Shown piece by piece: positions 2,693 through 19,808 of a DNA stretch of 64,000 nucleotides. How positions within the stretch are numbered: position 1 is the stretch's first letter; every line of letters starts with the position of its first letter. The DNA comes from an uncultured archaeon (GTDB lineage: Archaea > Altiarchaeota > Altiarchaeia > JAFGQM01): positions 24,703 through 88,702 of the forward strand of contig CAZQBY010000005.1 of assembly GCA_964592405.1 (NCBI GenBank). The letters run 5' to 3'. The notes beneath the pieces are model-generated. The model saw only the letters and a list, made by a program, of their open reading frames with translations, ran no database searches and was not told the DNA's origin. Position numbers and translations under genes: made by a program.

Positions 2693-4278
2693 TTCAATTT
2701 CGCCTCCACGGTTGTAAAAATCGGGCCTTTGAGCATTAATTCCTTCTTTTTTGATTGCAGATAGCGCATTACATGGTCGTCTATTTTTATATTCAGGTCC
2801 GGCGCCGTCTTAGCTATTTTGAACTGGTGGGAATATGATCTACCGGCTTTTGCAGCCTCTTCAATACCCGCTGCGAAATAATCGGAAATGGCGCGCAGGT
2901 AGGATATTCCGGTGTTTATCCCGTTTTTCCGTATCTCCTTCACCTTTTCGTTTTCATTGAACCCTTCTTTTGGTATGCCATAAATCCCCCCTTTGTAGAC
3001 ATATATCTCATTCATGGCGGCTGGTCCCAAAAGCCGGGTGTTGGCTTCATTTTCTAAGATCGCGACGGTCATATTCCGGCCAGCTATCTTCCCGGAAAAA
3101 ACCTCAAAGCTGCAGGGAGACGGTGCATCTGCATTCTCGGCTGCAGTTTTCTGGATGGCTTCCGAGAGTTCTCTGCCTTTTGTTGTTGTGGGGGCGCGGT
3201 CCACATGTATTGCACGCAGTATATCCTCGTCGGACAGCTCCATGGCTTGGTAAAACTGTGGAAACATTACCTCACGAACATCTGTGATGTTTTCTTTTAT
3301 CATAATTATTCTCTCTATGCCAAAGCCTGCATTGAAGGTTGGGTATTTGATATCATAGTTTGCCAAGGCTATGGGTGAGTACATGCCGATATCGGCTACC
3401 TCTATTCTCCCAGAGTTGCTTCTGGCAAAAACCTCCAATTCGCTTCCATTGGTGTAATAGGTGGAGGTTGTTTGTTTTTGTTCGTATTCAAGATCCTTGA
3501 AACCGAGAGGCCCAAGTATGCTGGCCGTTATTGCCTTCCCGGCTTCCAGCTCCATCTCTGGATCACATACGACACAGCTGGCTCCATAGTGCGCGCGCAG
3601 ATGGGTAGCATCAACCCTCTGCTCCCTCCGGAATCTCAGACCTATGGAAAAGAGTTTTATGGGGAACTCCAGTCTGTCCTGTAATGCTCTGAGTGTTGGG
3701 AACCATGCTGCAGTCATGTGACTGCGGAGAGTTGTGGTTGTCGGCTCTGCCCGCAGGTTTTTCAGTTCATCAAATAATGAGAGTATCTTGGTGGCCTGTT
3801 CTGTTTCTATGTCAAGCCTCTGTCTTATTGTTTCAACTAAATCGTCCCCCTCTATGCGACCTAGTTTATAGTCGCGGAGAACCTCCTTTAGTTTTCTGGC
3901 ATGTGTGTTGTTGAAGTTGGGGGCTACTTTTCTTATTTCCAGGATTTTTGCTTCACTTAACCCAATATCCGGGCGCGGTATGCCTGCCAGATAATAGCAA
4001 CGGTCCAGTATTGCAGGTGCCTCCGGACCATACTGTCTGTAAACTTCTTGCTCATCAATAAAGAGCGTGTTCTCAACCTCTCTAAACCCAAGCCGCAGGA
4101 AGATGGAACGGATCTTATGGACGGTATTCTGGATCGGGTGTGGTTCTGGTTTGGTTGGTTTGAGTAGTTTGGTTATGAAGGCCTTGTTTGGTTTGGGTAT
4201 CCACTTCCCGGCCTTCTTCCAAGTGCCGAAGAAATCTTTTTTGGCTTCTTCCTGAATCTTTTTGGTATTATATATCAT
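2689..4278 (-). CDS. sepS: O-phosphoseryl-tRNA(Cys) synthetase (SepRS)
   Basis: QYGPEAPAILDRCYYLAG, TLRSHMTAAWF, LFSIGLRFRREQRVDATHL, GMYSPIALANYDI and GFGIER motifs. Start moved to the ATG at 4278 (MIYNTKK) to avoid overlap with the upstream gene. Confidence 0.93.
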   Translation of the reverse strand: MIYNTKKIQEEAKKDFFGTWKKAGKWIPKPNKAFITKLLKPTKPEPHPIQNTVHKIRSIFLRLGFREVENTLFIDEQEVYRQYGPEAPAILDRCYYLAGIPRPDIGLSEAKILEIRKVAPNFNNTHARKLKEVLRDYKLGRIEGDDLVETIRQRLDIETEQATKILSLFDELKNLRAEPTTTTLRSHMTAAWFPTLRALQDRLEFPIKLFSIGLRFRREQRVDATHLRAHYGASCVVCDPEMELEAGKAITASILGPLGFKDLEYEQKQTTSTYYTNGSELEVFARSNSGRIEVADIGMYSPIALANYDIKYPTFNAGFGIERIIMIKENITDVREVMFPQFYQAMELSDEDILRAIHVDRAPTTTKGRELSEAIQKTAAENADAPSPCSFEVFSGKIAGRNMTVAILENEANTRLLGPAAMNEIYVYKGGIYGIPKEGFNENEKVKEIRKNGINTGISYLRAISDYFAAGIEEAAKAGRSYSHQFKIAKTAPDLNIKIDDHVMRYLQSKKKELMLKGPIFTTVEAKLN

Positions 4279-4298
4279 CGTGAGGGGGGTCACTTCCG

Positions 4299-5327
4299 CT
4301 ATTTGGGTTGAGGCTCCTGTGGGGCGCCGGGATATGGGGGTGGGGGTAGGGGCACCAGCGGTCGTTCTCTTCTGGAATTCATATACCAAAAGAGTAGAAT
4401 GGCAGATATTATGGTTATGATTATCATGAGCAGGTTTCTTTCATTCAGCGCATACAGGAATGCCGCGGCTATCACAATAACAACCACCCCTTCAAAAAGC
4501 CCCCATTTGGAGCGCACCTTCTCATTTTTGGCTACTGCCCCCCTGTCCCTGCTGAATACTTCTTTGCCCTTCTTTGCAATAACATCTTTCCATTTTTTGG
4601 GGGTTTTTAGGAGTTCAATATCATCTAGTAAACGATCCATCCATGTCTTGGCCCTGAGAGGTATATCATCATAGTTGATTGGGTAACCACCACACCCATC
4701 TATCCGGACGTTGTGGGTGCGCTTTTTGATGGTAAGCCAGAAGCGGTAGACTGGGGACCATATGAGTTCAAATCCGGCAACCGAGACATTGTCTTTGTCT
4801 GCCCGCAACGCTCCAGATATCTTCTGTTTGACAAAATGTTCCAATCTTGTTTCACTGATTTTTGGTTCCACTACCTTTGCATCGCCCCCTACCTGACCCA
4901 TCTCGTCGCTTAGATCTACAAGCTCAATTGGCTCATGATCCCGAAGGTCTTGCAGGTAATCTGCCAGCGCACCGGTTACAGCATCAATAGCAACCCGCCC
5001 TCCAATTTCCTCAGAATCTATGACATTCCCATTCTCATCTCGCATAACCAGTTCACAGGTATATGTAAAGAACCAGTAGGGTTGGAACAACAGTTCCCAG
5101 CCAATAACCTCATATTTCCTCTGATTCTTCTCCTTCATGAAATCCTTTAGAATGGAATTGGCAGTATCCTGATCTACCAAGGTGGGGAGCGTCAGGCGCC
5201 TCTTGACCTTCTTTTCTTTCTTCCCCTCTCCCTGCTCTTCAGTTCCCTTCCCATCCAGTCCGAATATGCTGTCTTCCAGATCTCTCACAAGATCATCAAA
5301 GTCAGCATTTTCATCTCCCTCCGGCAT
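4299..5327 (-). CDS. Hypothetical protein with two internally repeated domains and two C-terminal TM helices
   Basis: 342-aa ORF; WELLFQPYWFF...VAIDAVTG resembles FELIWSPVYRF...VRIDGCGG; hydrophobic C-terminal hairpin and Pro-rich tail. Confidence 0.75.
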   Translation of the reverse strand: MPEGDENADFDDLVRDLEDSIFGLDGKGTEEQGEGKKEKKVKRRLTLPTLVDQDTANSILKDFMKEKNQRKYEVIGWELLFQPYWFFTYTCELVMRDENGNVIDSEEIGGRVAIDAVTGALADYLQDLRDHEPIELVDLSDEMGQVGGDAKVVEPKISETRLEHFVKQKISGALRADKDNVSVAGFELIWSPVYRFWLTIKKRTHNVRIDGCGGYPINYDDIPLRAKTWMDRLLDDIELLKTPKKWKDVIAKKGKEVFSRDRGAVAKNEKVRSKWGLFEGVVVIVIAAAFLYALNERNLLMIIITIISAILLFWYMNSRRERPLVPLPPPPYPGAPQEPQPK

Positions 5328-5430
5328 AATCTAATTTAGGGGGGAGAAGTTAAAAAGCCGTTTGGGGTGTTTGGATTCGCGCTACACTACCCCCAAGCAC
5401 CACAGTAGATGTGCGCGCGCCGTTCCGGGC

Positions 5431-5808
5431 CTATTCAAACTTTCTTTTTAGTATCCTAAACCCGCCGGGAACTATAAGTATCTTTGTCTCAGAAATCCGG
5501 CCCATGTCGCCGTTTAGTTCGCTTTCGAGGTTTTTCAGGTTCCCAACGAGCTTTTTTAATGCCAGCCTGTTGGTCTGGGAAAGCGTTTCCGTGTCAAGAA
5601 TTATTACGTTTCCTTTTCTCAGCTCCCGTTCAATGTCTGCCATGACCTCTGGGGAGTTTGCGCTCAGGCTCTTGACATAGGTGTATTTGTCCTCATCAAG
5701 GAGCTCGCCCTCATGGAGGCCAATACCCTCCAGGTACTCATCTAAATCCACAACTTCATCGCTATCAGAACCCCCTTCCTCAAAACCAAGCCAGCTTTTT
5801 ATTCCCAT
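5431..5808 (-). CDS. sepF: Cell division protein SepF
   Basis: IERELRKGNVIILD, GDMGRISE and KILIVPGG match the archaeal SepF core. Amphipathic N-terminus MGIKSWLGF; start set to the ATG at 5808. Confidence 0.88.
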   Translation of the reverse strand: MGIKSWLGFEEGGSDSDEVVDLDEYLEGIGLHEGELLDEDKYTYVKSLSANSPEVMADIERELRKGNVIILDTETLSQTNRLALKKLVGNLKNLESELNGDMGRISETKILIVPGGFRILKRKFE

Positions 5809-5946
5809 TTTCGTCCCAGATTTAGTATTGTTGATTAGTCGGGGTTTGGAGAAAATCAACTTTCTCTTTTTTATCTTAGTCCACCCAAACTATACGATTT
5901 GTATCATTTATCACTAAAACTATAAAAACGTTTTCTGGGTTCCACC

Positions 5947-7182
5947 ATGGCAAGAGAAAATCTGTTCTCCAAATACCCCACAAAATATAGGATATTCAGT
6001 AACAAGGAGGCGCTATCACCACACTTCACCCCACCAAAACTGCCCTATAGGGAAAATGAAATAAAAAGTGTCGTGAATCTGATGGCCCCAGCCCTCAGAA
6101 TGGAAAAGCCTGCCAACATTTTCATCTATGGTAAGACTGGTGTCGGGAAGACCATCGTTACACGTTTCGTCTCCTCGGAGCTTCTGGAGATGTGTAAAAA
6201 ACAGGGCGTCCCACTCTACATTAGTTATATAAACAACAAGATACACGACAGCAAATACAGGGTTTTGGTCAAATTGCTGAAGGACCTGTGGGGGGCGAAC
6301 AAAGAATACTTTGAGGAACATGGGATTCGGGTACACGATTCAGGGGCCCCGCCAACAACCATTTATGAGACTATCATAGGGTTTATTGATAATCTGGGAG
6401 CGGGGCTTATTGTGGTGCTTGATGAGGTGGATGCGGTCCGCGATCTGGACAGTCTGCTGTACACACTGACACGTGCAAACGATGATGTTAAACAAGGGTT
6501 TATAACAATAATTGGGATATCCAACAACCTCTTCTTCAAAAAGAATATTGACCCGCGGAGCAAGTCCACACTGTGCGAGGAGGAACTGGTCTTCCCACCC
6601 TACAACGCCAAACAACTGACAACAATTCTGAGAGACAGGGTAAAAATGGGGTTTAAAGAAGGTAAGGTTGATCCTTCGGCCATGCGCCTGATAGCCGCAA
6701 TAGCATCCAAAGAGGGTGGGGACGCGCGCTATGCCCTTCGCCTCCTGCGTAAGGCAGGAGAGATCGCTGAGGCCACCAATGCCCGTCTTGTGAAGGTCAG
6801 TGATGTTGAAGAGGCCCAAAAAGGAGTGGAGGAGGATATTGTTCTGGAAAGCCTAAGCACGCTCCCCGACCACCAACAGATTGTCCTCATGGCTCTGGCC
6901 AATCTGGTAGAAAACGCCCAGAAAGACCTCCGTGGTGAGAAAAGAAAACAGTTTATATCAGGAGAAGTATATGATGAGTATAAAAAGACCTGCAAACAGG
7001 TGGGTGAGAAGCCAAGAAGTATGAGGTGGGTGAGAGAGTATCTGAACGATCTGGAAATGTTGGGCTTTATCTCTATGCAGTTTACCGGGAAGGGAAGTAG
7101 GGGGCAGACAAGACTTATTGAACTGGGCGAGGACCCCACAAAGATCAAACAATATATCATCAAATCCCTGAAGCTGGGCTAA
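5947..7182 (+). CDS. cdc6: Cdc6/Orc1 replication initiator
   Basis: LPYRE, Walker A YGKTGVGKT, Walker B VVLDEVD, FPPYNAKQL, GDARYAL and a C-terminal winged helix. Confidence 0.96.
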   Translation: MARENLFSKYPTKYRIFSNKEALSPHFTPPKLPYRENEIKSVVNLMAPALRMEKPANIFIYGKTGVGKTIVTRFVSSELLEMCKKQGVPLYISYINNKIHDSKYRVLVKLLKDLWGANKEYFEEHGIRVHDSGAPPTTIYETIIGFIDNLGAGLIVVLDEVDAVRDLDSLLYTLTRANDDVKQGFITIIGISNNLFFKKNIDPRSKSTLCEEELVFPPYNAKQLTTILRDRVKMGFKEGKVDPSAMRLIAAIASKEGGDARYALRLLRKAGEIAEATNARLVKVSDVEEAQKGVEEDIVLESLSTLPDHQQIVLMALANLVENAQKDLRGEKRKQFISGEVYDEYKKTCKQVGEKPRSMRWVREYLNDLEMLGFISMQFTGKGSRGQTRLIELGEDPTKIKQYIIKSLKLG

Positions 7183-8021
7183 CATATTCTAACATCCACC
7201 CCATACGCGCGCAATATGTTGGCCATACCGGCAACATGTCCAATACCAACAACCACAACCAACCTGCTTTTCTTTTTGAGGAGAGATAGTATATTACTAC
7301 ACATGTGAACATTCCGCTCTTCAACCAAGACTTTATAAGTAGCTGGAAAGCGCCGTTTGAGTGCCTGCATTAACTGGCTGACCGCCGTTCCTTCTTCCAG
7401 TTCTTTAACCTGCGCCCCACAACCAAATAAGGGGCCCGGCCCGGCCCCAAACCTGACTAGAACCGGCCGCAACAGCAGAAATACGAGAGCAGCAACAACA
7501 TTAACCCCCAACCACATTCTCTCCCACAGGGACATGTTTTTTAACAGGCGGTTGAGGCTGATTCGAATCGGCCGGTCTATAAGCGCAACAGACACCCCCG
7601 CCTGCTGTGCAGCCTGAATGGCTGAGAGCATTTCAATACCGGGAACAACTCCAAACATCCTACCAATTTCCCACTGTAGCCACCCCATTAAACCAACCAA
7701 ACTTACCAACCCTCCTGCGCGTGGTGAATAGCGGAAGTGACCCCCCTCTTCCATTTCCTGCAGGGCAAGGAACCTTTGCCGGTCCAGCTCAACACAAACA
7801 ACATCTGGTGATACCATGTCAATAATATCCATCACCCTTCTTGCACTCTTCTGCGAGATGTGGACCGTGCCTACAAGGTATACATATTTGGCCTCATACC
7901 TTTCTCTCTTGCCCTTGTGAACCCTCCTTTTATTTGTTCCTTTAACCATTCCTGTTCCCTGCATCCCAAACCCATTACTATCACAAACAAGAAAAACTAA
8001 ACCCTCGGACACCCGAGCCAT
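7179..8021 (-). CDS. TraB/PrgY family protein (start uncertain, possibly about 7949)
   Basis: YLVGTVHIS, VCVELDRQR, PGIEM, LIDRPI, LVEERN and VVVGIGHVAG are TraB-family motifs. Confidence 0.85.
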   Translation of the reverse strand: MARVSEGLVFLVCDSNGFGMQGTGMVKGTNKRRVHKGKRERYEAKYVYLVGTVHISQKSARRVMDIIDMVSPDVVCVELDRQRFLALQEMEEGGHFRYSPRAGGLVSLVGLMGWLQWEIGRMFGVVPGIEMLSAIQAAQQAGVSVALIDRPIRISLNRLLKNMSLWERMWLGVNVVAALVFLLLRPVLVRFGAGPGPLFGCGAQVKELEEGTAVSQLMQALKRRFPATYKVLVEERNVHMCSNILSLLKKKSRLVVVVGIGHVAGMANILRAYGVDVRIC

Positions 8022-8123
8022 GTCTCAAAAAACATGCGTCAGACAACACTAAAGAGGCCGAATTGACAAAGCTTTTTATACCTTTCTTCATAAACATTAA
8101 GGAACTTAAACCTTGGGTGAAAA

Positions 8124-8411
8124 ATGAGCATCAAAATATCGGAGCTGTATGGGACCGAAATATACACAAGCAAAGCCAAACACATCGGCAAGGTCGAAGA
8201 CATAATCCTCAACCTGCAGAAGGGCGAGATAATGAGAATCACGCTCGCTCCACTAAAAAGTGGCTTCCTTTCCAAAAGCAAGGTAGAAGAGATACTCAAG
8301 GAAAACAGCATTAGCTATCAGGATGTTGAGGAGGTTGGAGACATTGTCTTGGTGAAGCCCACCGTGCGCGCCGCAACTGCAGCAGCCAAGGGCGGGGCAC
8401 ACAGACACTAA
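8124..8411 (+). CDS. PRC-barrel domain protein (CdpB2-like)
   Basis: ISELYGTEIYT...IGKVEDIILN...VEEVGDIVLV PRC-barrel pattern. Confidence 0.85.
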   Translation: MSIKISELYGTEIYTSKAKHIGKVEDIILNLQKGEIMRITLAPLKSGFLSKSKVEEILKENSISYQDVEEVGDIVLVKPTVRAATAAAKGGAHRH

Positions 8412-8457
8412 CTTCCCACCCCAATTTTATAACACTCTACTGCTAAGTCTAGCCTAA

Positions 8458-9807
8458 ATGGTTCTTGACAAGCTCTCCTCAGGCCTGCAGAGGGTCCTAG
8501 AGCGTATTAGGGGGTCTGGTGTAGTCGACAGGACCACAGTCAGGGAGATAGTCAAGGAAATACAGAAGACGCTCATCTCAGCAGACGTCAAGATAGAGCA
8601 AGTCTTTGAAATATCAAGAATCATTGAGGAAAAAGCTCTAAAAGAGCGCCTGCCCGCCGGCATCCCACGAAAGGAACACCTTATAAAAGTGGTTTATGAG
8701 GAGATATCCAGACTAATGGGGGGCGAGGAAGCAAGATTCGAGCTGGACCCCAAAAAGCAAAACAGGATAATACTTGTGGGGGTTCAGGGTTCCGGAAAGA
8801 CAACACAGGCTGCCAAACTAGCAAAATATCTAATGAAAAAGGGATTTAAACCAGCCCTGATATGCGCAGACAAATTCCGTCCCGGTGCATTGGAGCAACT
8901 ACAGCAGCTCGGCAGGGAGATTAATGTTCCAGTTTACGGGGAGCAGGATGAGAAGAAGCCTTGGAACATTGCCAAGAGAGGGCTGGAGTACTTCAAAGAT
9001 AAAAACGTTGTTATAATAGATTCAGAGGGGCGACATTCGCTGGATAGAGATCTTATGGATGAGATAGAACACCTGCATAAGGAGGTCAAACCTGATTACA
9101 CATTACTGGTCCTGGATTCCACAATAGGCCAGCAGGCAGAGGTCCAAGCGCGCGCATTTAAGGAGCGCGCAGGCGTAAATGGCATCATACTCACAAAATT
9201 GGATGGTTCGGCCAAGGGTGGTGGCGGCATATCGGCATGTGCTGCAACAGGAGCTCCTGTTTTTTTCATAGGAGTTGGTGAGCGCATAGATGATTTGGAG
9301 CGGTTTGACCCAAAGGCATTTGTTGGCCGTCTGATGGGGTTTGGCGACATTAAGGGGTTGCTGCAGAAGTTTGAAGAGCACGTAGAAGAAGAGGAGCTCG
9401 AAGATATAGCAAAGCGGATGATGGCCGGCAAGTTCACCCTCCTAGATGTTTATCACCAACTGGAGCACGTCAAGAAACTTGGGCCTCTGAACAAGGTGGC
9501 CGAGATGCTCCCCGGGTTTGGTAAAATAAGTGGCACCAAACTCCTCCCAAAGGAGGTACTCAATGTGCAGGAGGAAAAACTCAAAAGATTCAGACCAATC
9601 CTACAGTCAATGACCTACCATGAACTCGAAAACCCAAAACTAAACCGTTCACGCGTTGAGAGAATAGCTGCCGGCTCTGGGACAGAACCCGAAGATGTGC
9701 GCGCACTTATACAACAATACAACCAAATGCGTGCGGGCTTCAAAAGACTCCGCAAGGACAGACGGTTTGCCAAAATGTTTAAATCAATGGCAGGCGAGGC
9801 GGCGTGA
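8458..9807 (+). CDS. srp54: Signal recognition particle protein SRP54
   Basis: GVQGSGKTT, DSEGRH, TKLDGSAKGGG and FIGVGE in the NG domain; M-domain FTLLD and SRVERIAAGSG. Confidence 0.97.
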   Translation: MVLDKLSSGLQRVLERIRGSGVVDRTTVREIVKEIQKTLISADVKIEQVFEISRIIEEKALKERLPAGIPRKEHLIKVVYEEISRLMGGEEARFELDPKKQNRIILVGVQGSGKTTQAAKLAKYLMKKGFKPALICADKFRPGALEQLQQLGREINVPVYGEQDEKKPWNIAKRGLEYFKDKNVVIIDSEGRHSLDRDLMDEIEHLHKEVKPDYTLLVLDSTIGQQAEVQARAFKERAGVNGIILTKLDGSAKGGGGISACAATGAPVFFIGVGERIDDLERFDPKAFVGRLMGFGDIKGLLQKFEEHVEEEELEDIAKRMMAGKFTLLDVYHQLEHVKKLGPLNKVAEMLPGFGKISGTKLLPKEVLNVQEEKLKRFRPILQSMTYHELENPKLNRSRVERIAAGSGTEPEDVRALIQQYNQMRAGFKRLRKDRRFAKMFKSMAGEAA

Positions 9808-9939
9808 ACTCCCCAAACAACCCCACTTTTTTCTTTTTAAGCCTTTTTCTTCTAATTATCCAGGTGGTAAAACCAACTAGCAGACCTGAATTTTGGTCTT
9901 GAAAAGCGGCGCTTTTCCATGTTCAAAATTTAGGCTTGA

Positions 9940-11859
<1,920 letters not shown>

Positions 11860-11866
11860 GGAAGAC

Positions 11867-14734
11867 ATGATGGATGATGCTGATGGGAAAGACCAACAAC
11901 AGAAAGACCAGCAACAGGAGGCCGGCACTCCAAACGACCCAACAGTCGGCAGTATCGGAAGGCAGATAATCCCTCAAAATATTGAGGATGAGATGAAGGA
12001 GTCATATATAGATTACTCCATGTCAGTCATAATAGGGCGCGCCCTGCCGGATGTCCGCGACGGACTAAAACCAGTTCACCGTAGGATACTCTATGCCATG
12101 AATGAACTTGGTCTACAGCACAATAAACCATATACCAAATCCGCCACTGTTGTTGGTGAGGTTCTTGGAAAATACCATCCCCACGGAGATACTGCAGTCT
12201 ATGATACTCTAGTCCGCATGGCGCAGGACTTCTCACTGCGCTACCCACTCGTTGATGGTCAGGGTAACTTTGGTTCAATAGACGGGGATCCCGCAGCTGC
12301 TTACAGATATACTGAAGTGAGGATGTCCAAGATAGCCGGCGAGATGCTTGCCGACATTGAGAAGAACACCGTCGATATGGTATCAAACTACAACGAGACA
12401 CGGCAGGAGCCCACAGTACTCCCCTCCAGATTTCCAAACCTCCTAGTCAACGGATCATCCGGCATAGCCGTCGGCATGGCTACGAACATGCCCCCCCACA
12501 ACCTATCCGAAGTCATTGACGGAATAACCGCTACCATAGATAATCCCCAAATAACGATTCAGGAGCTCATGCAGTATATCAAGGGCCCGGATTTCCCAAC
12601 AGGAGCCACCATTTGTGGTCAGGGCGGCATAGTCCAGGCCTATACAACTGGCAGGGGTAGTATCAGGATAAGGGCAAAGGCAGAAATAATAAAAAACAAA
12701 AACAGGGAGTCGATAATCGTCACGGAAATACCCTACCAGATAAACAAGGCCAACCTGATAGGCTCCATAGCCGAGCTGGTTAAGGATAAGAAGATAGATG
12801 GCATCTCGGATATAAGGGACGAATCTGATAGAGAAGGTATGCGCATAGTCATTGAGATAAAACAAGGGGCGCAGGCCGATATTGTCCTGAATCAGCTCTA
12901 CAAACATACGGCCATGGAGGCCACTTTTGGTGTCATAAATCTTGCTCTTGTAGACAACAAACCCGTAGTTCTCACTCTCAAGGGGCTCATAACCAATTTC
13001 ATAAAACATCGCAAAAACGTCATAACACGAAGATGCCAGTTCGAACTCAAAAAATCTGAGGACCGCATCCATATTCTTGAGGGCTTCAGAATAGCTCTCA
13101 ACAACATAGATGGTGTGGTCAAGCTCATCAGGGGTTCAGAGAACATAGAATCGGCCCGCACAAGTCTTGTCAGCAGTTTTGGGCTTTCGGATAAACAGGC
13201 CAAAGCCATACTGGAAATGCGCCTCCAGAAGCTGACCGGTCTGGAGCGTGAGAAAATAGAGCAGGAATATGGGGAACTTCTCAAATACATAAAGTGGTTA
13301 AAGGAGGTCTTGGCTGATGAGGGGCGGATTCTCCAGATAATCAAAGATGAACTTGCTGAAATAAAGAATACCTATGGAGATGAGAGAAGAACTGAAATAG
13401 GTGAGGCAGTTGATGATATTGATATTGAAGATCTGATACCTGAGGAGCGCATGGTTGTTTCCATAACCAACCAAGGATATATCAAGAGACTGCCCCTGAC
13501 CACATACCGTGCACAGAGAAGAGGGGGCAGGGGAGTCATAGGGATGGATACAAAGGAAGGAGATTTTGTCGAACAGCTTTTTATAGCCTCAACCCATGAC
13601 TACATGCTTTTTTTCACCAACAGGGGACGGGTTTACTGGCTCAAGGTCTATCAGCTTCCAATTGCAGGGCGGTATTCCCGCGGCTCAGCGATAGTAAACC
13701 TCCTCCAACTGGAAAAGGATGAAAAGGTGGAGGCCGCTATCAGAATAAATGAGTTCAAAAAAGGTTATTATCTGGTAATGATAACCAAGGAAGGCCTGAT
13801 AAAAAAGACAGAGCTGGAGGCTTACAGCCGTCCGAGGAAGGGGGGAATAATAGGGATAAGACTCAGGGAGAATGATGAGCTGGTAAGTGTTCTCCTGACT
13901 AAAGGAGATGACGAGATACTGGTCTCAACCAGAAACGGAAAGGTAATAAGGTTTAGTGAAACTGATGTGCGCGCAGTGGGGAGAAACTCTATGGGAGTCA
14001 GAGCCATAAAACTGAAGAACGAAGACAAGGTGGTCAGTGCGGTGGTCATAGATGTGGAATCGTCCCTTCTCACAATCACAGAGAACGGATATGGCAAGCG
14101 GACGCCGTTCAACAAATACTCCCTTCAAAAACGCGCCGGCCAAGGAGTTATAGATATCAAAACAACTGAGAGAAACGGGGGCGTGGTTGGATCCATAACA
14201 GTCCGAGAGGATGATGAAATAATGTCCATAACGTCAAAAGGGATTATAATAAGAACCCCAGTCTCTGACATATCCCAAATCGGCAGGAATACCCAGGGGG
14301 TCCGGATAATGAAGCTTGAAGAAGGCAACAAGGTAGTATCCATTGCGCGCATAGTAGGTGAAAAAGAGGAGGAAGAGATAGAGGGCGAAGTGGAAACCAT
14401 GGCAAAAGGTGCAGAAGCAGAAGAAGAGCCTCTAGCCGAAATCGAGAGGATCTCAGAAGAAAGACCTGCGCCCAAAGCCGAAGAGACAGACGAAGAAACA
14501 AATAAAACAACTATAGAGAGGGCCCTAGAGGAGATCGAGCCGGAGAGAAAGGAGCATACAGAAAAACCTGAAGAGCCTGTGCCAAAGGCGGATAAAACCA
14601 TCTTCCCGAGAGAAGAGATTGATGAACCAAAATCAGGCAGGGAGGTCCCGGATTATCTACTACGCTATATCAAAGCAAATCCAAAATCACCAAAAGCAAT
14701 CAAGGTTGCGCGCGAATATGGTATAGAACTGTAA
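11867..14734 (+). CDS. gyrA: DNA gyrase subunit A
   Basis: [22 protein letters not shown], catalytic AAYRYTE, GyrA-box QRRGGRG, beta-pinwheel repeats and an acidic tail. Confidence 0.98.
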
Positions 14735-14809
14735 TGGGCCTGGCCAGATTTGAACTGGCGACCTCTCGATTATCAGTCGAGCGCTATAACCAGGCTAAGC
14801 CACAGGCCC
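14735..14809 (-). tRNA. tRNA-Ile(GAU)
   Basis: Reverse complement GGGCCTG...CTCGA-CTGATAA-TCGAG...GTTCAAATC...CAGGCCCA folds as a cloverleaf; CCA not encoded. Confidence 0.95.
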
Positions 14810-14916
14810 GTGCCTCTATTTTGAAGATAAGTACTCAAAAAGTTTTCGGCCCCCGGGCTACATCAGCCACCCCAATACATAAATGAGCTGATAATATCAA
14901 TAATTAACACATAAAT

Positions 14917-15663
14917 TCAGAGCGAAAGCAGATTTCGGAGCCTCAAGAACCTCGGCGGCCTATAGTCCGCCCCAACCAGGTTGGCTGCCAGCTGCTTGTA
15001 GCTAACGGCCGCTTTGGAGTAGGGGGAGTGAAATACTAGGGGTGTCCGTTCGAATATCGACCTCTTTATTCCTTTGTCCTCTGGTATCCGGGCAAGCACA
15101 GGCGCCTCACAGAGAGCCTCAATTTCGTGCACAAGAATCTCTGCCGCATCATTCTCTACCCTGTTTACTATAACCCCAAGATTGTCCTTTCCCATGTTCC
15201 TGGAGATCTCAAGTATCTTGATGGCATCCGTTACCGAGGGGACATCCGGATTTGTTATAACCAAGATGTCATCGCACGCCTCCATAATATGGTATATATC
15301 CTTACTAAATCCAGGGGGCGCATCTACTATCACCAATCCCTCCAGACCATCCCTGATAACATCCTTGAAACCAGACATATCCACTATACTCTGCTCTAGA
15401 GAAAGGGATGCAGGGATTATCTTCATGCCGCGCAGCACCACCTTAACTGCTTTGTATATATGTGTCCTCTTTTTTAGGACATCCTGAAGAGATGAGCTTG
15501 CATCCGGGAGACCGAGATGTACTGTCAGATTGGCGGAACTAATATCTGCATCTACCAGTATGGACTCATGACCAAATTCATGGAGGGCTGCAGATAGGTT
15601 AATGGCCGTGACAGTCTTTCCGACCCCCCCTTTGCCGGAGAGAACACCAATTACTCGTTGCAT
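14917..15663 (-). CDS. minD: MinD/ParA family ATPase
   Basis: Deviant Walker A SGKGGVGKT, LVDAD, IVDAPPG, IVNRV; amphipathic C-terminus RFLRLRNLLSL. Confidence 0.9.
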   Translation of the reverse strand: MQRVIGVLSGKGGVGKTVTAINLSAALHEFGHESILVDADISSANLTVHLGLPDASSSLQDVLKKRTHIYKAVKVVLRGMKIIPASLSLEQSIVDMSGFKDVIRDGLEGLVIVDAPPGFSKDIYHIMEACDDILVITNPDVPSVTDAIKILEISRNMGKDNLGVIVNRVENDAAEILVHEIEALCEAPVLARIPEDKGIKRSIFERTPLVFHSPYSKAAVSYKQLAANLVGADYRPPRFLRLRNLLSL

Positions 15664-15786
15664 TATAGTGATTTACACCAAAGAACTCCACTATACTATC
15701 AGGAAGCCCAATAAAAATCAGGAGCATCCATTTTAATATCTGCAACAACAATATATCGCTACAGGTTATTTAATAGGGGTGCAGAT

Positions 15787-16209
15787 ATGGACAAAATTGT
15801 TGCGGTTGCCTCTATACTCGCTATAGTCGCCATACTCTCAGTGACCTTGATTCTAAATCCTTTTGCCCCCCCTTCACCCCTTCAGGAGGGGGCTGTCGAG
15901 GAGAGTGATGGCACTGGCGGAGTTGTGGGGACGGCTCCTGAACCAGAATCGGAAGGTGATGAAGCGACCCACCCAGAGATAAATATCAATCAGGCAACAA
16001 TAGAGTCCATAATAACCCCCAAAGTAAGTGGAAACTGCACCCTCTACAAACACGTAGTGAAGAACAAATGGGAGTGTTTTGGAACTGCTGGCAACTTCAG
16101 CAAAATAGCCACAAACGAATACCGGCCAGCAGAATCAGACACCTACTTTTGCAGGCCTACCGAGTATGGGTGCAAGCTTTACCAGAGGGTGGACTTCCAA
16201 CTGGGATAA
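15787..16209 (+). CDS. Membrane-anchored hypothetical protein with a small Cys-containing C-terminal domain
   Basis: N-terminal TM segment, acidic/Pro linker, four Cys in the C-terminal domain. Confidence 0.7.
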   Translation: MDKIVAVASILAIVAILSVTLILNPFAPPSPLQEGAVEESDGTGGVVGTAPEPESEGDEATHPEININQATIESIITPKVSGNCTLYKHVVKNKWECFGTAGNFSKIATNEYRPAESDTYFCRPTEYGCKLYQRVDFQLG

Positions 16210-16330
16210 TGTGCGCGCACACAATAATCCAGGCAACTCGGATGTGAGGGCTCTGGGAGATATTGTTTTGCTGACGTGCTGTATGATTATCCTTTGGTGA
16301 GGCCGGCCGCCAGAGGCGATCCTCATAAAA

Positions 16331-16404
16331 AGCCCCCGGAGGGATTTGAACCCTCGACTTGCTGATTACAAGTCAGCCGCTCTGCCAGACTGAGCTACGG
16401 AGGC
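16331..16404 (-). tRNA. tRNA-Thr(UGU)
   Basis: Reverse complement GCCTCCGTAGCTCAG...GCTGA-CTTGTAA-TCAGC...GGTTCAAATCC...CGGGGGCT. Confidence 0.95.
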
Positions 16405-16460
16405 AAGCACCCCCACATATGATTTCTCCCACAAGCGCTGCATCTGCCCAAGGATAGGAA

Positions 16461-16536
16461 TAGCGGGGGTGGGATTTGAACCACACGACCTTCGGGTTAT
16501 GAGCCCGACGAGCACTCCTGGCTGCTCAACCCCGCT
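16461..16536 (-). tRNA. Initiator tRNA-Met(CAU)
   Basis: Reverse complement AGCGGGG... with A1-U72; anticodon arm TCGGG-CTCATAA-CCCGA with the three G-C pairs typical of initiator tRNAs. Confidence 0.93.
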
Positions 16537-16633
16537 ATTAGAATAGTTAGGGGGGTATATTCGAAGTATGGACCATAAAAAATCAAGATGGTTGCGATTC
16601 CAAACCTTTTTTTCTAAAAACCTCAATATTATC

Positions 16634-16898
16634 AGCGGGCTAGGCCGGGGAGCTAGGGGTTCCCTCTTTCCCAAAATCCCCTTCAGGGAGCCGAATCCGA
16701 GGGGCGATTCGGTCTGGGTGGAGATGGATGGTTTTCCTCTGTGTCGATCCCTCGTCCCTTGGGGGCACATGTGATCCGAATCTGGTCAGGCCCTGACGGG
16801 AGCAGCCATAAGGATTATGTGTGTCGTCTAAGGAATCGCGAGGGGGAGCATGTAAACCACTCCTATCCATTTGGACCGTCTCCACCCGAGGGCCCGCT
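16634..16898 (+). ncRNA. ffs: Archaeal SRP RNA (7S), about 265 nt, apparently lacking helix 6
   Basis: 5' AGCGGGCTAGGCCGGGG pairs with 3' GCCCGCT (helix 1); helix 8 SRP54-binding motif GTCAGG-CCC-TGAC-GGG-AGCAGC. Confidence 0.9.
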
Positions 16899-16979
16899 AC
16901 CCAATCTTTCAATATGGCTTTTCTTACCCCTTCTTCTAATTTGACACTTGGATCTAAGTGTGTTCTAGGGTCGATCTGA

Positions 16980-17510
16980 GCCGAGGTCGGCGCAAACCCT
17001 CGCGGTTTGCTCACCTCAGCGCTCATAAGCAGAAAGGAAACCTACGCCGAGGTTGGGCGAACCTTCGGTTCGCAACCCTCGGCTAATATTCAGGGAGGAC
17101 GTTCACGCCGAGGTCGGGCTCGCTTCGCTCGCGACCCTCGGCACATTTGTAGAAGAGCTACCTTTGCCGAGGTGGGTGTAAACCTCTGCGGTTTGCTCAC
17201 CTCAGCGCTCATAAGCAGAAAGGAAACCTACGCCGAGGTGGCGGAATCTGGCTAACGCGCCAGATTGGAGATCTGTGGACCTCCTGTCTACCAAGAACGG
17301 GGGCCATTTCCAGACATCTGGTGCCCTTCGGGGCGTCTGGGTTCAAATCCCAGCCTCGGCGCTTCATTGTCTAAGCGACGCCTCGCGCCGAGGCGTCTGT
17401 TCACCTGCGCAACTTAGCGGCGAACAGGTGAACATCCCAGCCTCGGCGCTTCCTTCTCTAGGCAAATTAGCTGAGGGTCCCTGCAGCTTCGCTGCAGGTC
17501 TGACCTCGGC
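16980..17510 (+). repeat. Array of six hairpin units bounded by the tRNA-Ser acceptor stem, with 22-26 nt spacers, surrounding the tRNA-Ser gene
   Basis: Units at 16980-17020, 17046-17083, 17107-17142, 17166-17206, 17387-17447 and 17470-17510 start with GC(C/T)GAGG and end with CCTC(G/A)GC. A 52-nt exact repeat lies at 17002-17053 and 17188-17239. Confidence 0.88.
17232..17361 (+). tRNA. tRNA-Ser(GGA) with a 45-nt intron at position 37/38 (17271-17315)
   Basis: GCCGAGG/CCTCGGC acceptor stem with G discriminator; CCAGA-TTGGAG|A-TCTGG after splicing; long variable arm GCCC-TTCG-GGGC; GGTTCAAATCC T-arm. Confidence 0.92.
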
Positions 17511-17576
17511 GCTTCTACTCTACTTAGCTTAAGCTTGGCGCTAAATCTATTTATCCCACAACGCGCTAACCTAACC

Positions 17577-17828
17577 ATGGAAACTGTATGGCTTGGCTAT
17601 TTTGCCGGCATCCTTACAATGGCAGCATTCGTCCCACAAGTTCTGAAGAGTGTTACAACCCGGAGTACAAAAGACCTATCGCTCCCCATGCTTGTGATAA
17701 TGGCAGCCGGTCTGTGGATGTGGCTCACATACGGACTGGCAACTGGCGATCCGGCATTGATATTCACAAATATCATTCAGGGGAGCCTTGCGACAAGTCT
17801 TGTGATACTCAAGCTTAGGTATGGATAG
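17577..17828 (+). CDS. SemiSWEET / PQ-loop transporter
   Basis: AFVPQVLKS, TKDLS, LWMWLTYG and IFTN motifs; three TM helices; ATG at 17577. Confidence 0.9.
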   Translation: METVWLGYFAGILTMAAFVPQVLKSVTTRSTKDLSLPMLVIMAAGLWMWLTYGLATGDPALIFTNIIQGSLATSLVILKLRYG

Positions 17829-17876
17829 TCTGTTTTTCTTACCTTTTCCATATAATCCCCGTTCAACAAGTCCAAC

Positions 17877-19808
17877 ATGCTTGAATCCACTTGGACCAAC
17901 CACACTGGGAAAAGCCGTATTGGAGTCCGACTACCCGGAAAGAGGGGGTTTTATGTCTCAGCCCCTCTCCTCGGAGCTACACTATTCCTTGTAGCAGCGG
18001 TCTTGGCCGCCACAGTTGCAATAGAGAACGAGGCCCGTATACAGGTGGCAAGGAGCGCAGATATTCTGGGCAAGCTGCAATTCATGTCGCAGGCCATACT
18101 GGCTGACAGTTATAATGTCCTGTTGCAGACCAAACTTGAGGTCATGACAAAAGATTTCCTAGAGAGGGGATATTTTGATATAGACACACAGGAGAATGAC
18201 TGGAAGCAGTCAGTCAAGAGCAATCTGCAGAGCTATTACATAGACAACTTGGGCGAAACACTTGGACTGGATATAGCCGCCTATGCTAAGGCATATAGCA
18301 ATGTCCCAGGAATAGACAAGTGCTGGGTAGGGCATGCAGGAGACTACCAGTCAACACCCACTACTTATGACTCCAGCACGAATGATGGCAGTATTATGGT
18401 TATGGCAGCATCCTATGGTGAACGTATAGAGTGTGATGTCAGAGAACCCGAAGGACATCTTTCAGTGGACATACTGGGGAGGGCCTACAGAGTCAACATA
18501 CGTGTTGCAAAGCTCTATGATACTGCCAGATGGGTGATACTCACAACAAAAGGAGCACTGAACAGTGGCATAACCGGCGTGCCGGAGCCAGTAGCCTCTT
18601 GGAGCAGTTCCAGATGGATCAGAATCAAAAAGACGGATAATATCCCCGTGAATCCACAGGACTCACAGAATCTTCAGGCCATAATAGAGGACTGGAGCAG
18701 GATAATGAAATGGCTGGGCGATAGGATAATAAGCATATCCAACAACTATCTGAGTAGCAGCGGGCTGGTGGGTATCAGCCTTAGGGAGTTAGACATTGAA
18801 AAGGAAGAAAACGGGAAAGAACGGGGGCTGATGGACTTTGATATTTCATGCGCGGGGGAGAAGCAATACAGAAACTGTATGCCGTTTAGACTCAAGATAA
18901 CACTGGGAGATGCCGACTGCAGTAAGGGCGGGGAGCCCGTCATGTATGGATCAGAAAGTTTCTATCATCTGGCAGAGGAAAACCGATGGTGGATCAAATG
19001 CGGGGCGTCTGCCTGCCCACAGGAATTTAATGAGATCATGTACCAGATACTCAAGCCGATAGAAAGCGTCTGCGTGGACTACTTTGCCTATGTGGACTCA
19101 GTTTATCCGGTCTGCAGGAAGTGGATAGCAAAGGAAAAATCACTTACGATAAAAGGGGTTGTGGAGGACGACCACGAGGACTACTTGGCCACAGGATCCG
19201 AACATACACAGTTTAGGTTTAAGGACCAGCAGCCGAATGTTGATGTGACTACTACAAAGAAAAACCGCCTCAGATGTGATAAAGAGGGAATTGGTGAGCT
19301 GAAGGAGAATGACATCAATGTATACAAAAACAATGTGATCATCCTGCTGGAAAACATCATCATGAAATTTGGGGTGGCACGGGTTCCGGGCAGTTCTCTA
19401 AAAAGATGGGTAGACAAGGGAAGTGTTATAAGAGACCTAGATGATCCAACCCTGAAGCAGATATACAAGAACATCTATGGTCAGGGAGTCTTCCCCAAAA
19501 TCTGTTTTATGGGAGGTATTGCATCCAGCGACGAGTGTAAGAAACCCGAAATGTCGGAAAAACCCCAGATTGAGATATGGGTGGATTGGGACGAGACCAG
19601 AGAAAACTGCATAAATATGGTGGATAAGCTCTGCCAGACCTTCTACAATGACCCATCCCTAACAGCAGTTCCTGAATATACTGAGACATTCTGCAGGAAC
19701 CTCTTCCCAAGGAAGGAGGATGCAGTAGGAGGATATGGAAGATTGAGATGCGCCGGCAAGGGGGACGGGATATACATAGAGATAGGTCCTGGAGACACTA
19801 CCCCCTAA
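17877..19808 (+). CDS. Large Cys-rich protein with a class III (type IV pilin-like) signal peptide
   Basis: KRG|F followed by a hydrophobic helix; N-terminal region similar to the protein at 59557-62325. Confidence 0.75.
   Translation: MLESTWTNHTGKSRIGVRLPGKRGFYVSAPLLGATLFLVAAVLAATVAIENEARIQVARSADILGKLQFMSQAILADSYNVLLQTKLEVMTKDFLERGYFDIDTQENDWKQSVKSNLQSYYIDNLGETLGLDIAAYAKAYSNVPGIDKCWVGHAGDYQSTPTTYDSSTNDGSIMVMAASYGERIECDVREPEGHLSVDILGRAYRVNIRVAKLYDTARWVILTTKGALNSGITGVPEPVASWSSSRWIRIKKTDNIPVNPQDSQNLQAIIEDWSRIMKWLGDRIISISNNYLSSSGLVGISLRELDIEKEENGKERGLMDFDISCAGEKQYRNCMPFRLKITLGDADCSKGGEPVMYGSESFYHLAEENRWWIKCGASACPQEFNEIMYQILKPIESVCVDYFAYVDSVYPVCRKWIAKEKSLTIKGVVEDDHEDYLATGSEHTQFRFKDQQPNVDVTTTKKNRLRCDKEGIGELKENDINVYKNNVIILLENIIMKFGVARVPGSSLKRWVDKGSVIRDLDDPTLKQIYKNIYGQGVFPKICFMGGIASSDECKKPEMSEKPQIEIWVDWDETRENCINMVDKLCQTFYNDPSLTAVPEYTETFCRNLFPRKEDAVGGYGRLRCAGKGDGIYIEIGPGDTTP

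Follow-up and report, generated by a model that had tools for sequence, protein, structure and literature searches.

Why should a tRNA gene be surrounded by short hairpins, each closed by a copy of its own acceptor stem? The locus that raises this question lies at positions 16980-17510 of a 64,000-nucleotide stretch of DNA from an uncultured archaeon of the class Altiarchaeia (contig CAZQBY010000005.1 of assembly GCA_964592405.1), which we call the window and in which six such units accompany a gene for tRNA-Ser. A reading made from the letters of the window alone (the sequence-only reading) had described these units and offered three explanations for them: a tRNA-mimic cassette processed by tRNA maturation enzymes, a set of decoy attachment sites, or the footprint of a tRNA-templated miniature element. 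We find that the units are modules built on duplicated tRNA ends and that they track the cognate tRNA, and we tentatively read the array as a local pile-up of two families of such short palindromic DNA modules. A pattern of hairpins copying the ends of neighbouring tRNAs, found here in one group of vent archaea, seems undescribed. The window corresponds to positions 24703-88702 of contig C5 in its genome of origin (G000), which comprises 1.13 Mb in 22 contigs with 49% G+C and is 87% complete. The sequence is present in runs from hydrothermal vents and other marine metagenomes; for positions 15700-18700, eight DNA runs and no RNA run were found.

All six units were found where the sequence-only reading had placed them, closed by the tRNA-Ser acceptor stem, with four before the tRNA and two after it, on the forward strand throughout. 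The tRNA gene, which had been taken as one unit of the array, is present at 17232-17361 and could be corrected to tRNA-Ser(GGA) with a 45-nt intron in the region of the anticodon loop (47.9 bits with the Rfam tRNA model; ARAGORN missed it at default settings and called it when introns were allowed). Its acceptor stem is GCCGAGG/CCTCGGC and its discriminator base is G. The first unit, u1 (16980-17021; sequence and a fold of -20.9 kcal/mol), opens with a copy of the tRNA 5' end (the head), encloses a 7-bp hairpin and closes with a 3' arm that is mismatched at C3.A70; it retains the G discriminator, and its type recurs in contig C6 and in genomes G002 and G007. Sequence and fold also define u2 (17046-17084), in which a perfect 7-bp closing stem encloses a 7-bp hairpin with a TTC loop. 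The description of the inner parts as mostly clean hairpins holds in general but fails for u3 (17107-17143), where the fold shows a direct repeat inside a perfect closing stem; the same core is found in a unit upstream of tRNA-His on contig C17. The unit adjoining the tRNA, u4 (17166-17207), is a 92%-identical copy of u1 together with the u1 spacer (direct repeat family D2), and its type is found again upstream of tRNA-Ser throughout the class.

On the other side of the gene, u5 (17387-17448) scores 43.5 bits with our covariance model R1 (E = 5.7e-8) and folds with -36.5 kcal/mol. In it, a distal arm and an inner stem of 10 bp precede a copy of the tRNA tail (the 3' strands of T-stem and acceptor with the discriminator). 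Its 3' half and the next spacer together match the tRNA 3' end and the trailer with 76% identity over 51 nt (family D4). The last unit, u6 (17470-17511; sequence and fold), is a short unit of a third type. It has an inner hairpin of 8 bp, and its closing stem is a hybrid of a tRNA-Ser(GCU)-type 5' arm and a 3' arm of the local type; a copy of the unit is present at the start of contig C14. The four spacers that follow u1 to u4 (approximately 17022-17045, 17085-17106, 17144-17165 and 17208-17231 on the forward strand; family D1) are 22-24 nt long and 66-92% alike, and each begins with an A+T-rich box. More generally, spacers are related to one another within each side of the array (families D1, D5 and D6). 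Measured from arm to arm by the positions of the 7-mers, the spacers are 25, 23, 23, 25, 26 and 22 nt, exactly the series first reported, and the finer details of that report were equally accurate: the mismatch in u1 and u4 is C.A at pair 3:70, the G-U pair in u6 is U.G at the same position, and the G discriminator is kept in u1, u4, u5 and u6.

Counting both strands, the 64-kb window contains 20 copies of the 7-mer GCCGAGG, compared to 6.6 ± 2.6 in its shuffles, and a count of 20 was reached by none of 100 shuffles; 11 of the 20 copies fall within the 531 nt of 16980-17510. The global fold of 16960-17530 has a z-score of -8.2, although the nesting of the helices within it is arbitrary because all arms are mutually complementary. 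When positions 14000-19000 were searched against Rfam with cmscan at E<=1, the only tRNA match was the real one at 17232-17361, and the six units remained unmatched. Logan contigs from three to four independent DNA runs match pieces of the array without differences (for example 17054-17209 and 17210-17361 in run X2, and 17321-17452 in run X3). No single Logan contig spans the whole array, and the order and copy number of the units are therefore not independently verified.

The units upstream and downstream of the tRNA (u1-u4 and u5-u6) are different module types. A module has four parts: a spacer of 22-29 nt, two arms, of which one lies far from and the other near to the tRNA, and a variable inner hairpin between them. 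The units are 36-67 nt long and carry no cargo. The near arm of both main types repeats the tRNA end in direct orientation, including a few bases of the tRNA body, and the far arm is an approximate reverse complement of the near arm, the two types being mirror images in their architecture. The upstream type, which we call type A, starts with an exact copy of tRNA positions 1 to ∼8-11 and ends with a less exact 3' arm and the discriminator, followed by a spacer of 22-24 nt; in G000 it is represented by u1-u4 in the window and overall by three Ser loci plus His. The downstream type, type B, runs from a spacer of 20-31 nt through a less exact 5' arm and a conserved core (a 9-10-bp stem, AAGGT.../...ACCTT in most copies, with a loop of 17-22 nt) to a copy of the last 12-17 nt of the tRNA, which comprises the 3' strands of T-stem and acceptor together with the discriminator. 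Each module is flanked by such copies (8-11 nt for the head, 12-17 nt for the tail), as an element integrated by a tyrosine recombinase is flanked by attachment (att) repeats of a tRNA segment.

The same relation between unit and tRNA is found at other loci of G000. At the end of contig C6, a like array precedes a second intron-containing tRNA with an identical acceptor stem, which ARAGORN called Leu and which appears from its anticodon loop to be Ser(UGA). The tRNA-Ser(GCU) gene on contig C14 has a variant acceptor stem, GCTGAGG/CCTCAGC, and the units that flank it are closed by that variant. Its downstream units have the arm and core of the Ser(GGA) locus and a local T-stem/acceptor tail, and u6 shows the reverse of this combination of arms. 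The unit upstream of tRNA-His has the C.A mismatch at 3:70 and a core in common with u3, and in genome G003, where acceptor pair 7:66 of the tRNA is altered, the type A unit is altered alike. At the Val, His and Ser(GCU) loci there are identical tandem copies of units, interrupted by assembly gaps (N runs and contig ends). Using a rule that required both acceptor 7-mers, with at most one mismatch each, 12-75 nt apart and within 400 nt of the gene, we found units closed by the tRNA's own acceptor stem at 12 of the 32 tRNAs scanned (one tRNA was skipped), 14 units lying upstream and 13 downstream; two of these 12 tRNAs (Glu at -268 and Asn at -179) resemble chance matches inside coding sequence. 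By the acceptor 7-mer test, three other tRNA genes of the window, tRNA-Ile(GAT) at 14735-14809, tRNA-Thr(TGT) at 16331-16404 and tRNA-Met(CAT) at 16457-16538 (all on the reverse strand), have no flanking units.

Dependence on tRNA identity was measured by comparing each tRNA with its own flank and with the flanks of other tRNAs, counting 12-nt tail copies with at most one mismatch within 300 nt downstream. In G000, a tail copy was present in 10/33 own flanks compared to 2/614 mismatched tRNA/flank pairs; the corresponding values were 6/33 and 0/612 in G005 and 6/17 and 0/138 in G002. In G029, a member of another family, a 10-nt head copy was present upstream in 6/22 own flanks and 4/298 control pairs, and in G014 neither tail nor head copies rose above the mismatched pairs. 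The sequence-only reading had held that the same hairpins occurring genome-wide, independent of tRNA identity, would mark them as ordinary repetitive extragenic palindromic (REP) elements or miniature inverted-repeat transposable elements (MITE). They do occur genome-wide, but they are strictly tied to the identity of the neighbouring tRNA and are therefore not an ordinary REP/MITE.

We compared 61 genomes of the class, from 9 families, of which 8 genomes make up the window's own family; all are metagenome-assembled and incomplete, and relatives are not independent samples. To set the tRNA ends, we applied a simple rule based on the T-loop to the ARAGORN calls, of which some are mis-typed. A covariance model of type B, built from 27 units, matched 19 places in G000 at E<=1, and 19/19 follow a tRNA of the same strand at a distance of 0-400 nt, 13 of them after a gap of 20-31 nt; an nhmmer profile gave 20/20 matches just 3' of tRNA genes. 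A type B unit is thereby assigned to 14 of the 33 tRNAs of G000, or 15 if one weak match is counted. Taken together, about half of the tRNA genes in G000 have units that are closed by the tRNA's own acceptor stem. The type B model, which was trained on the window's family, has between 4 and 20 matches in each of its eight genomes and no match in the 53 genomes from the eight other families. Most of the apparent orphan matches in relatives adjoin intron-containing tRNAs.

Type A has a wider distribution. A search pattern consisting of a head copy, 12-42 nt, CCTC, 18-36 nt and the tRNA-Ser head, which fixes the 5' arm and part of the 3' arm, was matched at tRNA-Ser in 16/61 genomes and 6/9 families, and the reversed pattern was matched nowhere. 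Although the spacers have diverged between G000 and G007, which belong to different genera, the tRNA-adjacent type A unit is nearly the same in both, with 2 differences, in the loop, over 41 positions. As a control for specificity we collected 66 metagenome loci of tRNA-Ser with an identical 23-nt 3' end and a recognisable 5' end. Where enough flank was available, an upstream unit was present at 1/61 and a downstream unit at 2/59 of them, and the feature is therefore lineage-specific rather than general to tRNA-Ser with this stem. We also tried to compare empty and filled sites between G000 and G002, which belong to the same genus. The flanks of tRNA-Gln and tRNA-Lys could not be aligned beyond the tRNA, so that insertion boundaries are unreadable from this pair.

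The sequence-only reading had also proposed that structure is conserved while sequence varies, and this can now be put into numbers. Compensatory changes occur at 9/9 pairs of the type B inner stem. Among 76 distinct type B units, 91.8% of stem cells are paired, compared to 70% in shuffles and 31-47% with slid partners, and changes on both sides of the stem occur in 140 cells compared to 33 in shuffles. The observed values were reached by none of 500 shuffles, in an alignment that was fitted to the model and thus favours pairing. All 25 distinct type A units fold as a closing stem plus an inner hairpin, whose sequence varies with compensation; at pair 3:70, 14 of them have C-G and 11 have C.A, and no other combination occurs.

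The two arms of type B are not equally exact. Across 28 units, tail copies differ from the tRNA at 23/364 positions, 14 of the 28 showing no mismatch over 13 nt, while far arms differ at 38/196 positions, a decay per nucleotide ∼3 times that of the tRNA-identical arm. Read on the tRNA-sense strand, the mismatches of the type B stem are A.C or C.A in 27 cases and G.T or T.G in 11 (binomial p = 0.014, kinship ignored). Core sequences are also shared between tRNAs of different identity, with up to 79% identity and a median of 44% over 351 pairs; the type B core of Arg(TCG) in G000 is 79% identical to that of Ala(TGC) in G002 and 77% identical to that of Ser(GGA) in G007. Since a target duplication predicts a far arm that is less exact than the tail copy, unequal arms are expected if the modules are DNA elements, and together with the hybrid arms, the shared cores and the sense-strand excess of A.C they favour a DNA module over a function in the sense RNA.

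Elements of the integrase type are found at the same tRNA ends in relatives. PF00589 recombinases are present in 2/5 family members searched. On contig C6 of G001 (L171), an element at 1093-9000 has a 363-aa tyrosine integrase that starts 60 nt after tRNA-Ser(TGA), and on contig C38 of G003 (L172), an element at 881-12500 has a 370-aa tyrosine integrase after tRNA-Thr(GGT). These two elements are related, carry KaiC-like ATPases and open with a small hairpin directly after the discriminator; the G003 element also has a 1005-aa restriction-modification-like protein. At its right end, 11.8 kb away, lie an 11-nt tRNA tail copy, a 25-nt spacer and a type B unit, and the same left end follows a type B tail downstream of tRNA-Ser(GGA) in G002 and G001. 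Behind that left end, these two genomes have 1-1.8 kb with HicAB and a ParE-like pair, followed by a tail fragment and more units. In G002, the HicA/HicB pair and the pair of 88-aa and 110-aa proteins (ParE-like by a weak Pfam match) occupy 1890-3279 of locus L161 (C15:20500-24300), between downstream units of tRNA-Ser(GGA), and a homologue of the 88-aa protein is also encoded 3' of tRNA-Ser in G001 and 3' of tRNA-Tyr on contig C14 of G000. Integrase-mediated insertion at these tRNA ends is thus real in the family, and unit tails stand at the element borders. A recombinase with cargo between repeats was found at other tRNAs in G001 and G003 and was found neither in the window nor elsewhere in G000.

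At the start of contig C1 in G000, positions 66-212 hold a truncated TnpA of the IS200/IS605 type (Y1 transposase) that scores 36 bits and has one in-frame stop. The GC-rich end hairpin behind it is unrelated to the units, and we rejected a link to IS200/IS605 elements. Searches of G000 also gave weak TnpB-like matches below the cut-off and no reverse transcriptase.

The modules are thus maintained as palindromes, exchange cores between loci, amplify in tandem and co-occur with integrase junctions. Our proposal, which we hold with a little less than even confidence, is that they act at the level of DNA as attachment-site-like sequences, are passively transcribed, and spread when the terminal 8-17 bp of tRNA genes undergo site-specific recombination or are duplicated. 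Recombination as the mechanism, the hairpin as its substrate and transcription of the units are what we infer from these patterns. Modules would arise and spread by integrase-type recombination or by duplication, with the tRNA gene left intact and its end duplicated. The folded palindrome might then mimic the acceptor-stem duplex and serve as a recombination site, by analogy with the attC sites of integrons, and unequal exchange would amplify units in tandem. Extra tail copies would stay usable as secondary attachment sites for larger integrase elements. The modules would probably be carried in the pre-tRNA as leader and trailer hairpins and be cut off by RNase P and RNase Z. The unit nearest to tRNA-Ser would be old, given its class-wide occurrence, and may have been co-opted as a structured leader.

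Several observations weigh against this proposal. No PF00589 integrase was found in G000, at 87% completeness, and none lies beside the array of the window. We found no full-length element with a type B core, a pattern scan of IMG/VR yielding 11 chance matches of which none was confirmed by the model, and the one attachment region that could be reconstructed, that of the G003 element, has no hairpin. At the junctions, either the unit or the element may have come first. It is difficult to see how a free element of ∼85-90 bp could be a substrate for recombination. Conservation of the upstream tRNA-Ser unit and of motifs in its spacer across 6/9 families resembles purifying selection on a functional leader more than a footprint, and the recurrence of C.A at 3:70 in 11/25 upstream units and in the tRNA-His unit is not predicted by the model. 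The mismatch excess of A.C over G.T, uncorrected for relatedness, could reflect a mutation bias, and the summed folding energy of 19 units is alike for the sense (-488.4 kcal/mol) and antisense (-496.2 kcal/mol) strands. With no recombinase, no parent element, a tiny free unit and a class-wide C.A unit to account for, we kept RNA function, decoys and decay as rivals. A bolder version of the DNA module, which we regard as unlikely, would be an archaeal system analogous to integrons and seated on tRNA genes, in which the tRNA plays the part of attI and the units that of attC, and a tyrosine recombinase inserts, stacks and shuffles miniature cassettes at either end while the gene is kept active. 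The sites of such a system would be folded hairpins, each with a closing stem that imitates the acceptor-stem duplex of one tRNA gene, and the cassettes would now and then include genes, for example toxin-antitoxin pairs.

The strongest competing case can be made for RNA. The units could be co-transcribed minihelices cut by RNase P or RNase Z, or structured leaders and trailers, a possibility to which we give a low probability, and we consider it about as improbable that they act by controlling the folding, processing or stability of the pre-tRNA or by titrating enzymes that read acceptor stems, such as seryl-tRNA synthetase (SerRS). Conservation speaks for a role of this kind, since a tRNA-Ser-adjacent unit is present in 16/61 genomes and 6/9 families against none for the reversed pattern, stems are kept while loop and spacer change (2 loop differences out of 41 between G000 and G007), inner stems show compensatory changes, and the discriminator is retained in 4/6 units of the window. 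The genome encodes RNase P RNA, and A+T-rich promoter-like boxes, recognised by reading the sequence, stand upstream of the first unit and would place the units within the transcript; the A+T-rich boxes of the spacers are too near to the next unit by the same reading, which makes it seem unlikely that the units are independent promoter-driven genes. The sense strand, however, has more A.C (27) than G.U (11) in the downstream stem, whereas a helix in the sense RNA would be expected to show the reverse. The far arm also decays (38/196 positions mismatched), and 11/25 upstream units have the non-Watson-Crick C.A at 3:70. Downstream units are moreover limited to one family and turn over their cores rapidly, identical tandem copies occur, no unit is tRNA-like to Rfam at E<=1, and one core serves tRNAs of different identity. 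Of the three explanations offered by the sequence-only reading, the tRNA-mimic cassette is consequently the least supported, with no Rfam match, a ∼3-fold decay of the far arm and the A.C excess, and the other two, decoy sites and a miniature element, both fit better in view of the 8-17-nt copies of tRNA ends, the shared cores, the tandem copies and the integrase junctions.

As decoys selected by the host, the extra tail and head copies would divert tRNA-targeting integrases away from the functional gene. The near-exact tail copies (14/28 without mismatch over 13 nt) and the integrase-type elements or remnants that lie distal to a downstream unit on contigs C15 of G002, C91 of G001 and C38 of G003 suit this idea, but a module that arrived later at the tRNA tail would give the same arrangement, and integrase elements sit directly at the tRNA on contig C6 of G001 and at tRNA-Thr in G003. 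Decoys would merely dilute the risk, and they leave the inverted arm, the inner hairpin and the old upstream tRNA-Ser unit unexplained; we consider host-selected decoys quite improbable. Still less probable is a plain decay of tandem duplicates of the tRNA gene, in which internal deletions would have removed the D, anticodon and variable arms and left pseudo-tRNAs, with no specific mechanism or function. The collinearity of u5 and its spacer with the last 51 nt of the tRNA plus trailer (76% identity, D4) and the relatedness of spacers within each side (D1, D5 and D6) are what decay would leave, whereas the same compact architecture at 14-15/33 tRNAs and in 8 genomes, the cores common to different isotypes and the covariation of inner stems are not. 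No remnants of a D arm or anticodon arm are visible, only terminal segments being alike and u5 alone collinear (51 nt), and the 5' halves read as reverse complements of the 3' halves and not as copies of the tRNA 5' half. An artefact of assembly, with reads from several tRNA-Ser loci collapsed or chained in a metagenome-assembled genome, seems very remote: arrays elsewhere hold N runs and end contigs and no single Logan contig spans that of the window, but contigs of three to four runs agree fully with the sequence of the units, the same architecture is present in seven other genomes of the family, and the upstream unit is found in other families too.

The known systems closest to duplicated tRNA ends are the elements of archaeal tyrosine recombinases. 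In the parts of a review available to us (PMC8371274), archaeal integrases are described as preferring tRNA 3' ends, pTN3-like integrases as using the tRNA 5' half, with the tRNA then expressed from a promoter of the element, and pT26-2-like elements as targeting tRNA-Ser(TGA), tRNA-Ser(GCT) and tRNA-Leu(TAA). Like the attL and attR sites of such elements, as that portion presents them, the modules are terminal direct repeats of a tRNA beside an intact gene, tRNA-Ser is a favoured target, and integrase elements occupy the same junctions in relatives; the upstream spacers, too, supply sequence ahead of the tRNA as 5'-targeting elements are described to do. Unlike attL and attR, however, the units are 36-67 nt long and cargo-free, contain an inverted copy of the duplicated segment and hence fold back, and stand in arrays with spacers of 22-29 nt on both sides of one gene, and no integrase was found in G000. 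The word 'hairpin' is absent from the main text of the review in the form available to us, and two further papers, on tRNA gene fragments (PMC9897764) and on tRNA disruption by a mobile element (PMC3293823), describe in their accessible parts simple fragments and no fold-back modules. Full-text literature searches, judged by titles and the starts of abstracts, returned no account of hairpins with a cognate acceptor stem beside tRNA genes.

Integrons offer another possible parallel. In architecture the units appear analogous to attC sites, imperfect palindromes whose 7-nt outer arms are conserved and whose interior is variable, with an unpaired internal loop; both form arrays and keep structure more than sequence. 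Toxin-antitoxin cassettes stand between units in G002, and the mismatches hint at a single-strand bias. In contrast to integrons, we found no integron integrase, attI site or cassette promoter (PF00589: none in G000), the arms are specific to each tRNA instead of forming a universal core, and the arrays are anchored on tRNA genes. The 'cassettes' are spacers of 22-26 nt without open reading frames (ORFs), and inserts with ORFs between units are found only in the relatives G001 and G002.

REP elements and the bacterial interspersed mosaic elements (BIME) that they form are short imperfect palindromes clustered in intergenic DNA, often within neighbouring transcripts. The units are likewise short, palindromic and intergenic, but they differ from REP, BIME and MITE in that 19/19 model matches lie just 3' of tRNA genes and the arms copy the cognate tRNA, and no cognate transposase was found in G000, the lone Y1 trace being the unrelated IS200-like fragment. 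tRNA minihelices and other tRNA-like structures serve as substrates for RNase P, RNase Z and the CCA-adding enzyme. Like them, the units have a stem of 7 bp that resembles an acceptor stem and often precedes the cognate discriminator base, but they have no T arm and no Rfam tRNA match and show frequent mismatches near the top of the stem, and their mismatch spectrum argues against a helix in the sense RNA. They also differ from a CRISPR array, since their constant parts are only 7-10 nt long and alternate in orientation and their variable parts are themselves hairpins.

Some further features of these tRNA genes were noted. Introns are present in 16/33 tRNA genes of G000, and an archaeal RNase P RNA is encoded in the genome. 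A conserved pyrimidine/purine hairpin element (CCCTTTCTTT...AAGAAAG...GTGCTTCACCCC) is found in the introns of tRNA-His (C17:6425-6577) and tRNA-Trp (C1:69498-69774) of G000 and also just 3' of tRNA-Ser in other families (L011 and L012), and in L012 a second copy of the tRNA tail follows it by ∼150 nt; this element may be mobile and intron-like. In G029 (L196 and L194), tRNA-Met comes after two tandem copies and tRNA-Glu after one copy of its own 5' part; each copy, estimated as roughly the first 10-30 nt, leads into an intron-like hairpin element and a repeated piece of upstream sequence. In 21/33 tRNAs of G000, position 1 is preceded by a base complementary to the discriminator, compared to ∼16 expected from base frequencies, and such an extended -1:73 pairing of the precursors is unremarkable.

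The neighbourhood of the array begins with an archaeal signal recognition particle (SRP, 7S) RNA gene at 16633-16899 (Rfam RF01857, 103 bits with a gathering score of 96.5), which ends 80 nt upstream of u1 on the same, forward strand as tRNA-Ser. Linkage of 7S RNA and tRNA-Ser is known from methanogens, and the SRP RNA may be co-transcribed with the array. Just upstream of it, on the opposite strand, lie the genes for tRNA-Ile(GAT), tRNA-Thr(TGT) and tRNA-Met(CAT), and at 11867-14734 (+) the window encodes subunit A of DNA gyrase in full length (PF00521 and six C-terminal repeats), whose closest relatives found, with 38-67% identity, are almost all bacterial or from Methanosarcinales. Directly downstream of the array are a 76-aa ORF (17588-17818, +) and a 643-aa ORF (19808 being the end of the latter, which starts at 17877, +), neither with a Pfam match at E<=0.001; the product of the shorter one resembles, by eye, a membrane protein of two or three helices.

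Integrating elements classically land in tRNA genes, and the descriptions so far are of a simple direct repeat of some tRNA segment. In the present case we see, across a lineage, dozens of compact fold-back modules whose stems are tailored to each tRNA, which occupy both sides of the gene, and in which structure is kept and cores are mobile between identities. The modules explain the breaks in assembly at tRNA loci of these genomes, and annotation pipelines should expect such fragments of tRNA ends. If the units are RNAs, they would make up a family of cognate-tRNA-specific leader and trailer structures or acceptor-stem mimics, with a bearing on pre-tRNA processing and on recognition by synthetases. 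If they are recombination sites, they would represent a new design of attachment site, a hairpin imitating the target duplex, together with a new archaeal miniature mobile element, and the modules give a testable handle on how integrases choose between the ends of tRNA genes.

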